Under the pieces are notes generated by a model. That model ran no database searches. It saw only the letters and a program-made list of their open reading frames with translations, and was not told the DNA's origin. The translations under genes and the position numbers were made by a program. From Alphaproteobacteria bacterium (lineage in GTDB: Bacteria > Pseudomonadota > Alphaproteobacteria > SP197), in contig OZ242015.1 in assembly GCA_965204785.1 (NCBI GenBank), positions 2,263,032 to 2,327,031 on the forward strand: a stretch of DNA of 64,000 bases. The letters run 5' to 3'. How positions within the stretch are numbered: the first letter of the stretch is position 1; each line of letters starts with the position of its first letter. Positions 21,882 through 55,569 of the stretch are shown here, piece after piece.

Positions 21882-22035
21882 GATGGTGCCAGCATCGCCG
21901 AGACGCAGCGGGCCTTGGGCTGGCAGGAACACAGCGTTCGTGGCTTCCTCTCCGGAACCGTCAAGAAGATGGCGGGCGTGATCCTCGTCTCCGGGAAAGG
22001 CGACACCGGCCCACGGCGCCATCGCATCGAAGCGG
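21882..22035 (+). pseudogene. DUF3489-family gene, C-terminal fragment only
   Basis: The frame opens after a TAA at 21879-21881 and reads DGASIAETQRALGWQEHSVRGFLSGTVKKMAGVILVSGKGDTGPRRHRIE. The (T)GWQxHSVRGFLSG core is the DUF3489 signature as I remember it. The N-terminal half is missing, at the edge of the duplicated block. Confidence 0.6.
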
Positions 22036-22059
22036 CCGGGCATGAGCGCCATGGCGAGG

Positions 22060-22307
22060 AACACGCCGGACGGCGGGCGGAATGGCGCCGGCCTCCGCCG
22101 GCCCTGCCCGGGAAACTTGCCGCCCTTGGCAATCTGGACATGGCCGGACGGCGGGCGGAATGGCACCGGCTCTACCGCTCACAGCCCCTCGGCGTGTCCG
22201 GCGGGAGCTTCTGATCCTGGCGATCGCCTGGAAGCTCCAGGAGAAGGGCCATGGCGGGCTGACGCCGGCGCAGAAACGGACCCCCGCGCACCTCTGGGCG
22301 ATTACGC
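22060..22307 (+). pseudogene. DUF2924-like gene, N-terminal part only, frameshifted, with an in-frame 78-bp internal duplication, cut off by the G30 tract
   Basis: Frame A reads AGRRAEWRRPPPALPGKLAALGNLDMAGRRAEWHRLYRSQPLGVS. Frame B from ~22190 reads RRELLILAIAWKLQEKGHGGLTPAQKR, resembling the DUF2924 motif LLxRxIAyrlQExxxGGLs. The 28-nt repeat gccggacggcgggcggaatggc(g/a)ccggc occurs at 22065-22092 and 22143-22170. Confidence 0.55.
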
Positions 22308-22337
22308 GGGGGGGGGGGGGGGGGGGGGGGGGGGGGG
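22308..22337. repeat. Uninterrupted homopolymer G30
   Basis: Counted directly: ...attacgc + 30 g + tcgggcgcacgg. Coding similarity changes on either side. Confidence 0.95.
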
Positions 22338-22591
22338 TCGGGCGCACGGACGAATACATCGACGAATACTTCGGCCGCGAGTACAGGGCCGACATGCTCG
22401 GGGGCCTGGGCTACGACCCGGACAGCCCCGCCCTCGAGGTCATCACCCGCGCCTTCCAGATCACCTTCCACGAGGTGGTCAGGCCGCGGCGCGACGGCAC
22501 CAGGGAGGTGCTCGATATCGCCTCTCTCGCGCGCGACGATCCCGAGATGCTCGACCTTGTCTTGGGCATGCTCTTTCACCACATACCCTGA
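22338..22591 (+). pseudogene. Start-less 84-codon C-terminal ORF of unknown family, fused in frame to the G30 tract
   Basis: VGRTDEYIDEYFGREYRADMLGGLGYDPDSPALEVITRAFQITFHEVVRPRRDGTREVLDIASLARDDPEMLDLVLGMLFHHIP. The composition is protein-like and unlike a DUF2924 C-terminus. The stop TGA at 22589-22591 lies 1 nt before the next ATG. Confidence 0.35.
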
Positions 22592-22592
22592 C

Positions 22593-23099
22593 ATGGCCAC
22601 GCACACCATCATGCTGCCCGACTGGCGCTACGGACGCGCCCGGCGCACCATCCTCTGGGACGACGAGGCCGGGACGTTCTCCGGCGATCACGGCGATGTG
22701 CCATGGCTCAACGAGCAGGTCGGCGGCGAGCCGGGATGGCTCGTCAAGGAAGAGATCCGCATCTGGCTCGAGGACCCGGCCCACAGGCCGGGCGACCTCA
22801 TCTGGCTGCTGGGCGACATCTGGGCCGGCGTCCACACGCCGGGTGAGATCTACCAGGGCATTACCGTCACCCTGCCGCCCGTCTTCGACGGCGGCCAGAC
22901 GGAGTACGAGCACCTCTCCCCCATGGTCACCTTCCCCGACGGTCACAAGGCGCTATGCCCCGCGCTCCTGGTCGACGAGGACGGTGAGATAATCGGTGAC
23001 CCGCCTCCCAACGCGGAATACACCCTCACCGACGAGCCCGCCCCGGGAGCAGCCAGGCGCACCACCGACGGCCAGCTCATCAGGTTCTGCCTGGCCTGA
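22593..23099 (+). CDS. Hypothetical protein, 168 aa, no family recognised
   Basis: ATG at 22593 immediately after the upstream stop: MATHTIMLPDWRYGRARRTILWDDEAGTFSGDHGDVPWLNEQV.... Acidic, non-shadow composition. Its 3' end is duplicated at 12433..12532. Confidence 0.55.
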   Translation: MATHTIMLPDWRYGRARRTILWDDEAGTFSGDHGDVPWLNEQVGGEPGWLVKEEIRIWLEDPAHRPGDLIWLLGDIWAGVHTPGEIYQGITVTLPPVFDGGQTEYEHLSPMVTFPDGHKALCPALLVDEDGEIIGDPPPNAEYTLTDEPAPGAARRTTDGQLIRFCLA

Positions 23100-52843: not shown

Positions 52844-52857
52844 GGCGATCTTCCTTC

Positions 52858-53520
52858 CTAGTTTCGGGCGGCCTGGATCGTGTTGAGCGCCATCGCCGTG
52901 GCGGCCTGGGTGGGTTCGATCACGGGGATGCCGACGCGCTGTTCCAGCAGGCGCCGGTACTGCGCCATGCCGGCACAGCCCATGACGAGGACATCCGCAC
53001 CATGATCCTTCTTCAGGCGGCTGCCCACCGCGGTCATTCGGTCGAGCACCTTGTCGGCCTGGCCAAGTTCCGTCACACCCATGTCGATCGCGAGATCGGC
53101 AGCGAGTTTGTCGAGCAGGCCCAGCGAGCCGATGTGACGGCGGTGGCGCGGCAGGGAACGCGACAAAATAGAAATCACGCCGAAGCGCTCGCCGATCGCC
53201 GTAGCCGCGGCGTAACCGCATTGGGCAATGCCGAAAACCGGCGCGCGGCTGGCTTCGCGTGCCGCGTGAAGGCCGGGATCGCTGAAACAGGCGATGACGA
53301 AGGCCGAAGTCCGGTTATGTTCCTTTTCGACTGTCGCGATGATCGACCCGACAACCTGGGCGATATGCCGGTCGGTTTCGACACCGGGAGGGCCCTCCTC
53401 CAGGGTCACACAATCGATTTCCGGCCCGTTGTCGAAGCGCAGGCCATCGAGCGCCTTCGACATGCGTGCGGTGACATCCCGACTGCTGTTGGGGTTGATG
53501 ACGAGGATACGGCAGGTCAT
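52858..53520 (-). CDS. Asp/Glu/hydantoin racemase family protein (hydantoin racemase-like)
   Basis: MTCRILVINPNSS...VIACFSDPGL...VLVMGCAGMA (two Cys-containing motifs). 220 aa. Confidence 0.8.
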   Translation of the reverse strand: MTCRILVINPNSSRDVTARMSKALDGLRFDNGPEIDCVTLEEGPPGVETDRHIAQVVGSIIATVEKEHNRTSAFVIACFSDPGLHAAREASRAPVFGIAQCGYAAATAIGERFGVISILSRSLPRHRRHIGSLGLLDKLAADLAIDMGVTELGQADKVLDRMTAVGSRLKKDHGADVLVMGCAGMAQYRRLLEQRVGIPVIEPTQAATAMALNTIQAARN

Positions 53521-53524
53521 GGCG

Positions 53525-54868
53525 TCAAACGGGCCGCACGAAGCAGCCGTCACCCGGAGCGGTCAGCACTTCGCCACCGAAAAACGCTTCCCTGCCTCGC
53601 AGCCAGACCTTCATGACCTTTCCCGTCATCTCCATGCCGTCATAGGGACTCCAAGGCGCCAGATTGCAGTGCAATGTAGCATCGTCATGGCGGTAGGGCT
53701 CGCGCCCCACGACGACGAGATCGGCATCAGCCCCGACCTGGATGGCGCCTTTTTTGGGCCAGAGCCCGAAGTGGCGAGCAGGCGCTTCGCACAGCATGTC
53801 GGCCACCATGGTCGGCGAATGACCGCGCTCGGCAACCACCGTCAGCATGGCGGACAGCAGGCATTCCACGCCCGGGGCACCCGGAGCGGCCTGGAAGATG
53901 TTGTCGTCGGTTTTTCGTTCCAGCGGCCAGGAGCAGTGATCCGACGAGACGAAGGTCACGTCACCGCCAACAAGACGTTCCCAGATGGCATCCTTCTGGT
54001 CTGGCCGGATGGGAGGATTGACCTTCCCGCGCGCGCCGCGCTCAAGCACATCGGCCTCGTCGAAGACCAGATAGTGAATGCAGGTCTCGCAGGTCGCCTG
54101 GAAGCCCTGCTCGCGGTAATTGCGCGCCATGTCGAAGCCGCGCGCCAGGGAGGAATGCACGATATGCGCGCGTGCGCCGGTCTGCGCACCCATCTCCAAA
54201 ATAGCCGCGTTGGCCAATAGTTCGGCCAGCGGCGGCCGGCTGGGATGATGCACGTTGGCGCCCATCTGCTTGGCTTTCTTGAAGCGCGCGATGGCGTCGT
54301 CGACCACTTCCTGGTCTTCGTTGTGCACGGCGACCGTCAAGCCGGTCTCGGCAATGGCGGAAAAAGCGCGCGCCATCTCGTGATGGGGAATGCGCGGAAA
54401 CCGGTGCGGGTTGGCCTCATAGGTCGACATCTTGAAAGCGCATACCCCGCCGTCGGCAAGAGCGGCGATCTGATCGACCTCCACCGTCTTCTTCACCGAG
54501 CCGTAGAGCGCCACATCGCAATGCGCGACCGCGTCGGCGGTCTCGATCTTGGCGCCGAGCAGATCGCGGCTCCATACCGGATCGGGCTCATCGAACGGCA
54601 TATCGACAATGGTCGTCACGCCCCCGGCGATGGCACTGCGCGAGAGGTCTTCGAGTCCCTTGAAGCCCGCGATGGAACCGGCGTGGGTCTGGCCGTCGAC
54701 GACGCCGGGAAAGATCAGGTTGCCCGTGGCGTCTTCCGTCTTGCGCGCCTCCGGCGTCTCGCCCTGGCCAACCGTCGCGACCTTGCCATCCTCGATGGCG
54801 ACCCAACCATTCTCCGCCACCTTTTCGGACAGGACCAGATCACCTTTGAGCACCAGATCGAACGCCAT
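53525..54868 (-). CDS. Cyclic amidohydrolase (D-hydantoinase/dihydropyrimidinase/allantoinase family)
   Basis: PGVVDGQTHAG (position of the HxH motif, first His is Gln), GVCAFKMSTY (carboxylated Lys), VAVHNED, HIVHSS, VSSDHCSW. 447 aa. Confidence 0.85.
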   Translation of the reverse strand: MAFDLVLKGDLVLSEKVAENGWVAIEDGKVATVGQGETPEARKTEDATGNLIFPGVVDGQTHAGSIAGFKGLEDLSRSAIAGGVTTIVDMPFDEPDPVWSRDLLGAKIETADAVAHCDVALYGSVKKTVEVDQIAALADGGVCAFKMSTYEANPHRFPRIPHHEMARAFSAIAETGLTVAVHNEDQEVVDDAIARFKKAKQMGANVHHPSRPPLAELLANAAILEMGAQTGARAHIVHSSLARGFDMARNYREQGFQATCETCIHYLVFDEADVLERGARGKVNPPIRPDQKDAIWERLVGGDVTFVSSDHCSWPLERKTDDNIFQAAPGAPGVECLLSAMLTVVAERGHSPTMVADMLCEAPARHFGLWPKKGAIQVGADADLVVVGREPYRHDDATLHCNLAPWSPYDGMEMTGKVMKVWLRGREAFFGGEVLTAPGDGCFVRPV

Positions 54869-55037
54869 GGCTATTGTATACCTCCTTCAATTGGGTTCTG
54901 TTCTATCGCGTAACCGCGCCGATGACCAAGCCGGACTCCCTGCCAAACTTTCGTAGTCACGGAACCATAAGAGCTCCGGCGCGTTGACTTCACAAGCGAG
55001 CGCGGCTGGCCCGTCCATCGGCCCTGCTACCCAATTC

Positions 55038-55569
55038 ATGCGTAGAATTCTGATCGCAACCGTTTCCGTGGTTGCACTTTCCCTTGGTTCCGCCGTTGCG
55101 GACGACGATGCTCTCGTCATCGAGGAGGGCGGCGCAGCCGAAGCTACAATCGATGCATCCGACGCAGATGTCACCATCGACAATGCGTTCGGGGTCGGGA
55201 ACTATGACGCTAGGGAAATTCTCGACGCTGATATCGTCAGCCTTGATGGCAGGGCCATCGCCCAGCCCATCGATTTGCTGGTCGACAGCGACGAAAACAT
55301 CGCCTTTGTCGTCACCTACTACCCAGGATCAGTTGATTGCCACCTCCACCGACACGCTTCGGGCTTACCGCAGTGGCGGCACACTGATGCTCGAGTCTGA
55401 TCGTGCCCGTGAGGAACTTGTGGAAGCAGGACCGTTCGATGCGTTACGCTTCGACTATCGTCTCTATTCTGAACAACATGGTCGGTCTGAGCGAGGCCGA
55501 GACCGAAACCACGGGCGACTGAACAAGAACATGCGATCGCAGGTGTGTGGTGAAGGCTGCTGGGCCTAA
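55038..55569 (+). pseudogene. Secreted PRC-barrel-like protein, apparently frameshifted around 55325 (and possibly again near 55470)
   Basis: MRRILIATVSVVALSLGSAVA signal peptide. ...AREILDADIVSLDGRAIAQPIDLLVDSDENIAFVVTYYP, then the next frame reads DQLIATSTDTLRAYRSGGTLMLESDRAREELVEAGPFD. The family call is tentative. Confidence 0.4.

Follow-up and report, generated by a model that had tools for sequence, protein, structure and literature searches.

A 34-kb stretch (21.9-55.6 kb) of a 64-kb window from a marine alphaproteobacterial genome very probably represents a conserved gene backbone interspersed with true pseudogenes and mobile-element debris at various stages of erosion, and the decay extends over the genome as a whole. 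The window, that is, the whole stretch of DNA analysed, corresponds to C1:2263032-2327031, where C1 is the main contig of the genome under study (G000); coordinates without a contig name are window positions. The genome comprises 3.85 Mb with 62.6% GC in 8 contigs, the largest of 3.75 Mb. Eighteen genomes of the same genus were available for comparison, the closest of which have 80-86% nucleotide identity in prfC; more distant prfC matches (71% or less) point to Rhodospirillales-like Alphaproteobacteria.

A gene was regarded as a pseudogene when homology to its family or orthologue continued across an in-frame stop or a change of frame, or when less than about 70% of the full length was left. 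For broken frames, Pfam was scanned over whole frames with stops coded as X, and joins were placed by three-frame reading. The frame segments were then joined by hand and rescanned with Pfam (read-through). Between 21.9 and 55.6 kb, 15 genes were found to be broken, truncated or internally deleted, and all 15 are pseudogenes by the above definition. Their Pfam matches were partial or split over frames. A preliminary description of this DNA had counted at least 14 decayed genes in about 34 kb. Pfam, orthologue comparison and read-through confirm 15, but a supposed PRC-barrel protein and an IS1182-like element are not among them. The relic DNA amounts to about 11 kb and lies between the backbone genes; about one third of the 34-kb stretch is dead remnants and mobile-element debris.

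21879-22030, forward strand: C-terminal fragment of a DUF3489 gene (positions 21-68 of 68 of the PF11994 hidden Markov model, HMM); the first ~20 HMM positions are gone, and an in-frame stop (21879-81) lies just before it
22065-22307, forward strand: N-terminal remnant of a DUF2924 gene, recognized by a weak N-terminal match; it is frameshifted near 22200, 78 bp are duplicated internally, and ~250 bp that its paralogue has are deleted
23328-23598, forward strand: C-terminal fragment of a DMT/EamA gene (about residues 190-280 of ~308; residues 190-260 by the 308-residue G003 orthologue), with a frameshift near 23541-23547
23791-24639, reverse strand: IS110 transposase relic, degenerate and reduced to its C-terminal half (weak PF02371 match, E = 0.027)
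24711-25040, reverse strand: N-terminal stub of an M24 peptidase gene, with residues 9-118 of 423 left by orthologue comparison
26510-27871, forward strand: PLD-superfamily pseudogene with two HKD motifs, in at least five frame segments (frameshifts near 26738, 26945, 27110-27200 and 27400-27450)
32190-32440, reverse strand: pseudogene of a HigA-like helix-turn-helix antitoxin, with one frameshift, at the 5' side, and tandem stops at 32400-32405
32463-32810, reverse strand: pseudogene of a HigB (Gp49/RelE-like) toxin, which keeps to one frame but contains three nonsense codons (TAA at 32754, TGA at 32655, TAG at 32604)
39852-40500, forward strand: GST pseudogene with TAG at 39873-39875 and frameshifts near 40000 and 40300
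40620-40870, forward strand: putative frameshifted paralogue of a mini-gene with two transmembrane segments, suggested by a coding signal that changes frame near 40775, without a family match
42923-43510, forward strand: short DMT/EamA gene with an in-frame internal deletion of about residues 143-239; an intact DMT gene follows downstream at 43600-44448
47741-48768, reverse strand: dienelactone-hydrolase (DLH) pseudogene with a frameshift at ~48412 (DLH positions 2-186 of 217 on read-through)
48786-49700, reverse strand: GH3-family remnant that has lost its N-terminal domain, with TGA at 49282-84 and TAG at 49135-37, the latter with a frameshift near 49130
49720-50139, reverse strand: N-terminal stub of a penicillin-amidase gene (HMM positions 4-136 of 675), joined in frame to the GH3 remnant
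50470-51040, forward strand: pseudogene of a yciB/IspA paralogue with frameshifts at ~50530 and ~50688 and TAG at 50921-23 (IspA positions 2-175 of 176, E = 5.8e-32, on read-through)

Read-through improved the PLDc_2 match of the PLD relic from E = 6.7e-7 to 4e-24 (two stretches), with PLDc matched twice. Gp49 was then covered from position 2 to 89 of 90 in HigB, and GST_N (4-76 of 76) and GST_C_3 (30-102 of 104) in the GST relic. In the GH3 remnant, GH3_M and GH3_C were restored, while the N-terminal domain was still absent. The open reading frame (ORF) at 49285-50139 is a deletion fusion, in which a penicillin amidase breaks off after its first ~140 residues and continues as the middle of a GH3 protein. 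The EamA fragment was recognized by tblastn with the orthologues of G003:C10 and G015 (E = 1e-23 and 3e-19) and also by blastn. For the IS110 relic, the matches were plasmid-borne transposases annotated as IS110 (E = 1e-15), and fragments of it recur many times in the genome. Some genes have disappeared altogether: a 384-residue gene that adjoins the M24 gene in G003 and G015 is deleted in G000, and a 165-residue gene beside prfC in the relatives is deleted outright. An intact yciB is located at C1:369252-369815; the relic is a divergent paralogue of it, with 31-34% identity, and so the conserved function has not been lost.

Two further observations concern these relics. The GST pseudogene is flanked by paralogous two-transmembrane mini-genes, one intact (39532-39747) and one frameshifted (40620-40870), neither of which has been assigned to a family. 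The two DMT frames might be taken for one gene with a programmed frameshift at 43540, but this reading was rejected: each frame is a gene of its own, and one has an internal deletion.

The genes between the relics present a very different picture. The window is colinear with G003:C31, G015:C1 and G007:C4 from 24.7 to 58 kb. When the ORFs of these relatives were translated and used in tblastn searches against the window, 20 of 20 backbone genes gave full-length, single-frame alignments to three congeners, at 65-95% amino acid identity. These are two Rieske oxygenases, a LysR regulator, a beta-lactamase-like gene, an 88-residue gene, prfC, a 153-residue hypothetical gene, a 3-hydroxyacyl-CoA dehydrogenase, metY, an alpha/beta hydrolase, an acyl-CoA dehydrogenase, a DUF3144 gene, a DMT gene, an ABC-F gene, an enoyl-CoA hydratase, YaaA, a 256-residue hypothetical gene, a carbamoylase, a racemase and a hydantoinase. 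Domain coverage of the backbone families was complete in Pfam. Two genes serve as examples.

33169-34776, reverse strand: prfC, an intact backbone gene in one frame, with 92% amino acid identity to G003
12981-21605, reverse strand: unbroken giant gene of 2874 residues from the ORF list (coding score 532), the intact control for the indel-rate argument below

A second giant ORF of more than 4035 residues, located upstream in the window, is also uninterrupted. The preliminary description had named prfC, metY, the 8.5-kb ORF, the acyl-CoA dehydrogenase, ABC-F, an acyl-CoA synthetase and selA as uninterrupted, and this was borne out in every case. Frame changes suspected in the 51.9-54.9 kb region were rejected, as they merely reflect the neighbouring intact carbamoylase, racemase and hydantoinase genes. 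Two intact genes, at 35424-35879 on the forward and at 51162-51926 on the reverse strand, have no Pfam family; they share 64% and 68% amino acid identity, respectively, with G003.

The loss of genes is not confined to this region. We carried out a census by reciprocal tblastn with ~0.4-Mb samples of G003, G007 and G013, counting orthologues at 60% amino acid identity or higher. With the genes of the relatives as queries, 13.3% (G003), 6.1% (G007) and 8.9% (G013) were not intact in G000. With G000 genes as queries, the fraction not intact in the relative was 14.4% for G003, 7.8% for G007 (almost all of them classed as partial) and 2.1% for G013. Orthologues with frameshifts or nonsense codons numbered 12 of 348 in G000 versus 2 of 372 in G007 and G013 together, a roughly 6-fold difference (Fisher p = 0.0055). 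The G000 lesions comprised 21 deletions versus 12 insertions, 7 of the 22 frameshifting gaps were longer than 2 nt (multi-nucleotide lesions are, for example, -46, -164 and -237), only 2 of 15 small indels lay in homopolymers of 4 or more, and stops occurred in 9 of 14 genes. Altogether 51 broken loci were spread over C1, from 66 kb to 3.35 Mb.

Measures that need no reference genome agree with the census. Robust ORFs cover 73.5% of G000 versus 78.7, 79.8 and 84.1% in relatives, and 18.7% of its bases lie in non-ORF gaps of at least 600 bp, versus 8.4-12.6% in relatives. The region itself has a robust-ORF coverage of 67.2%, which places it at the 18th percentile among 34-kb windows; several others score lower still. 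Of C1, 6.35% consists of repeats. In 400-kb samples, the self-repeat content was 1.2-5.8% in G000 versus 0.3-0.6% in the relatives, a 3-10-fold excess, with contributions from a family resembling miniature inverted-repeat transposable elements (MITEs), from fragments of IS110 and from 10 or more Mu-like relics. G000 thus combines several hallmarks of erosion: more pseudogenes, a moderately lower coding density, expanded repeats, and a mutational spectrum that is biased towards deletions and away from homopolymers. The preliminary description had considered that the region might be a mere local island, to be recognized by a genome-wide census and comparison with relatives. This is not the case, as broken genes and repeats are in excess throughout the genome. 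Decay is genome-wide and moderate, and the region is representative of it rather than a special island.

It might be argued that these remnants reflect ordinary gene turnover, i.e. that the flexible islets of a free-living bacterium normally contain short-lived leftovers of genes gained by horizontal transfer, and that the genome is not unusually decayed. The relics do fall exactly into those spaces between core genes that are variable and hold other cargo in the relatives, and several of them (HigBA, IS110, MITE and Mu-like debris) are classic mobile cargo. Moreover, the fraction of genes not intact is similar both ways in the comparison with G007, and the retained proteins show no rate acceleration (see below). 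However, ordinary turnover does not account for the 6-fold excess of frameshifted and nonsense orthologues over G007 or G013, nor for the surplus of non-ORF DNA and repeats. In addition, many relics carry 3-6 lesions each, suggesting long persistence, which is atypical where deletion clears pseudogenes fast. We therefore regard ordinary turnover as an improbable explanation, although the best of those that compete with ongoing erosion.

The age of one lesion can be judged from a duplication. The DUF3489/DUF2924 relic has a second copy at C1:2618141-2618960, which is 97-98% identical and differs from the first by 87-, 78- and ~250-bp indels. The DUF2924 frameshift is common to both copies, and the lesion is therefore older than the duplication. 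A long homopolymer directly follows the copy in the window.

22308-22337, forward strand: tract of 30 G residues (G30), where the paralogous copy (C1:~2618870) has G5

A second long poly-G tract, G31, is found at C1:1451478-1451508 beside another giant repeat-protein gene, and both tracts are preceded by TTAYGC. They may be either real slippage-prone tracts or assembly artefacts of k-mer size (k about 31).

Lesion type and context were used to judge whether the decay could be technical, with consensus errors from long-read or metagenome assembly concentrated in low-coverage or strain-variable accessory regions. The assembly of a single very large contig with several small ones suggests that long reads were probably used, and the poly-G tracts could be artefacts. 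Error-like insertions also occur in a related assembly. In G003, the closest multi-contig relative, 90 of 97 lesions are gaps of 1-2 nt, nearly all of them +1 insertions outside homopolymers, and genes with up to 17 such insertions each are clustered in certain regions, e.g. G003:C28:21-42 kb. These insertions are probably assembly errors, which makes G003 a poor reference for pseudogene calls.

The lesions in the G000 region are of another kind. Stops of all three kinds have arisen by substitution, stretches of 46-250 bp have been deleted, genes have been truncated by hundreds of codons relative to intact orthologues, and two genes have been fused by a deletion; consensus errors do not produce lesions of these types. 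Except for the G30 tract, no homopolymer in the region reaches a length of 7, and no regional frameshift is located in one that does. About 15 frameshifts and at least 9 in-frame stops were found in the ~11 kb of relics versus none in the ~40 kb that intact ORFs occupy in the window, where more than 50 lesions would be expected at the relic rate. Mean GC content at third codon positions (GC3) was 0.686 in the relics versus 0.793 in intact genes, suggesting that the codon bias of the relics has decayed. Together with the full-length, single-frame backbone and the frameshift common to two independently assembled paralogous copies, these properties of the assembled sequence support a biological rather than technical origin of the decay, and consensus errors are a very unlikely explanation.

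The preliminary description had already argued that several lesions are substitutions to stops rather than homopolymer indels, and that random indels at the relic rate would shatter the 8.5-kb ORF; both arguments hold. The stops that it placed at 39873 (TAG) and at 32604, 32655 and 32754 are exact, while a TAG assigned to 50911 lies at 50921. Expression of the interrupted genes by functional recoding (programmed frameshifting, stop read-through or an altered code) is effectively refuted: nothing specific speaks for it beyond a tRNA-Sec and selA, which allow TGA to be read as selenocysteine at dedicated sites, while the relics hold all three stop codons, would need several frames per gene and lack large gene parts, intact genes end at normal stops, and no suppressor tRNA was found in the genome.

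Some considerations weigh against the interpretation of a genome undergoing biological decay, and they should be kept in mind. The lower GC3 of the relics could equally mean that they are of foreign origin. The argument about biological and technical decay rests on lesion type and context, and the single 1-nt indels are known from the assembled sequence rather than from read pile-ups. The census is based on home-made ORF calls and three samples instead of a curated pseudogene caller, and its partial class, in which G007 has as many matches as G000, may contain domain differences. G003, the closest relative, has an equal fraction of broken genes, though with an error-like spectrum. Finally, the absence of rate acceleration argues against strong genome-wide drift.

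The last point is based on a relative-rate test with 11-13 backbone proteins, a small sample from one region. Unique changes in G000 versus G003 numbered 177 versus 166 (chi2 = 0.35) and 222 versus 194 (chi2 = 1.88), so that faster evolution of retained G000 proteins was not found in this region. The retained genes of the region are under constraint comparable to that in G003. This favours a release of accessory functions, together with mobile elements, over a general collapse of selection; alternatively, the shift may be very recent. Relaxed selection on dispensable genes thus fits better than a general collapse of population size. The preliminary description had proposed biological decay through relaxed selection or a shift of lifestyle or population size. 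Its biological nature is supported, while the proposed causes are tentative, and no rate acceleration is seen.

The most likely cause would be relaxed selection on accessory functions after a narrowing of the niche, combined with a burst of mobile elements. Genes that had become dispensable were very probably inactivated by point nonsense mutations, small indels, insertions of IS, MITE or Mu-like elements, and deletions of 50 to more than 1000 bp. The inactivated genes are now being whittled down by the usual bacterial deletion bias, while adjoining housekeeping and catabolic genes are kept by purifying selection. A more far-reaching version is tentative and, in our estimate, doubtful. G000, from a marine, Rhodospirillales-like lineage with free-living-looking congeners, would be in an early-to-middle phase of genome erosion. 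Niche narrowing (possibly towards a host-associated or sheltered setting) would have freed many accessory genes from selection and, together with a proliferation of Mu-like, IS110 and MITE elements, would precede detectable acceleration of core proteins. If true, G000 would be a rare natural model, neither insect symbiont nor pathogen, for the first steps of reductive evolution.

Comparison with known cases helps to gauge the extent of decay. In SOPE (Sodalis pierantonius), almost half of the genes are inactivated in comparison with the free-living strain HS, and selection on intact genes is relaxed (PMC3914690). G000 resembles SOPE in having pseudogenes in dispensable genes beside intact essential ones, an expansion of mobile elements and a genome that is still large, but differs in that only ~3-13% of the sampled orthologues are broken and protein evolution is not accelerated. 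Erwinia tracheiphila, a recently host-restricted plant pathogen, shows mobile-element proliferation, pseudogenes and gene decay (PMC4824170). The same combination is found in the otherwise normal-sized genome of G000; however, E. tracheiphila belongs to another phylum-level lineage and has a known ecology, and the elements of G000 are mainly the MITE-like family, IS110 fragments and Mu-like relics.

In facultative insect symbionts, coding density has dropped to 80.8% (Hamiltonella), 71.4% (Regiella) and 60.9% (Serratia symbiotica), compared with a normal bacterial value of 85-90%, and waves of pseudogenisation are followed by deletion (reviewed in PMC5091035). G000 is similar in that its coding density is under the bacterial norm and multi-lesion pseudogenes await deletion, but its drop is only moderate, and the 73.5% (versus 84% in a complete congener) is a measure of coverage and not a true coding density. 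Ordinary bacterial pseudogenes, in turn, reportedly turn over under a deletional bias, as Mira, Ochman and Moran are said to have described in 2001 and Kuo and Ochman in 2010. G000 shares the deletion-biased spectrum, and failed genes of horizontal origin likewise stand out among its relics, but the density of relics and the number of lesions per relic are above those in the two better-assembled congeners sampled. Overall, G000 is a much milder case than SOPE, E. tracheiphila or the facultative symbionts, with a pattern that matches early degenerative genome evolution. It is a moderate instance of a known phenomenon, bacterial genome erosion, in a new lineage.

In practice, interrupted genes in the G000 assembly should be annotated as pseudogenes and not "corrected" as sequencing errors, and about one tenth of its apparent gene content has to be discounted when metabolism or ecology is deduced from the genome. 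If the source is a host or another confined niche, G000 would offer a useful early-stage comparison for reductive evolution outside the classic insect symbionts. If it is not, G000 would be an ordinary, though clear, example of gene decay.

Mobile-element debris in the region includes a prophage relic next to the G30 tract and an element between the LysR and beta-lactamase-like genes.

22332-23395, forward strand: Mu-like prophage relic, containing the C-terminus of a 511-residue protein with a Mu F-like motif (recognized by eye, not by Pfam) and a 170-residue ORF at 22590-23096
30115-30838: MITE-like element of 724 bp with 46-nt imperfect terminal inverted repeats (CCCGGCTTTCGAGTTTGTGAAGG...)

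The Mu-like module, consisting of the 511-residue protein followed by the conserved 170-residue ORF, occurs in at least 10 copies in the genome with 83-93% identity, many of them truncated; examples in C1 are 3179987-3182384, 1587268-1589661 and 2447358-2449746. A serine recombinase, considered as partner of DUF2924, was rejected, since the downstream repeat is the C-terminus of the Mu F-like protein.

In G015, the LysR and beta-lactamase-like genes are immediate neighbours, without the element. The family of this element has ~20 copies or fragments in the genome; in C1, 21 inverted-repeat ends were counted, and 6 copies, of 722-1207 bp, have both ends. The preliminary description had assigned the element to the IS1182 family. 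We rejected this label, because the terminal inverted repeats are present but no copy has an ORF for a DDE transposase; six-frame translation of the element gave no Pfam match, and even the longest copies (1164-1207 bp) contain no clean ORF. The supposed PRC-barrel pseudogene likewise found no support.

54957-55519, forward strand: orphan ORFs, first read as a PRC-barrel pseudogene, with identity and lesion unconfirmed

Pfam gave no family match for these ORFs, and among 5.8 billion sequences only the window's own protein matched. Six-frame Pfam scans were also without match at 23100-25240 (reverse strand), 30086-30941, 34777-35892 (forward strand) and 54887-55588; two of the Pfam-blank regions were later accounted for by blastn as IS110 fragments and the MITE-like repeat.

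Several minor observations concern the surroundings of the region and the related genomes. In G015, the end of one contig (G015:C1:107-113 kb) and the start of another (G015:C2:0.3-9.2 kb) carry the same gene block, with an internally deleted ABC-F gene; as the contamination of G015 is 9%, the repeated block may reflect mixed strains. The selA gene runs off the window, and a tRNA-Sec lies directly downstream of it, just past the window end (C1:2327722-2327817). The spacer between the two giant adhesin-like genes (12195-12651) corresponds to a collapsed version of the sequence that lies upstream of the second one: it matches 21600-21825 and 22992-23217 with 98.7% and 93.8% identity and lacks the 1.17-kb DUF3489/DUF2924/Mu-like insert. 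A third copy of this upstream region precedes another giant gene at C1:2606-2619 kb.

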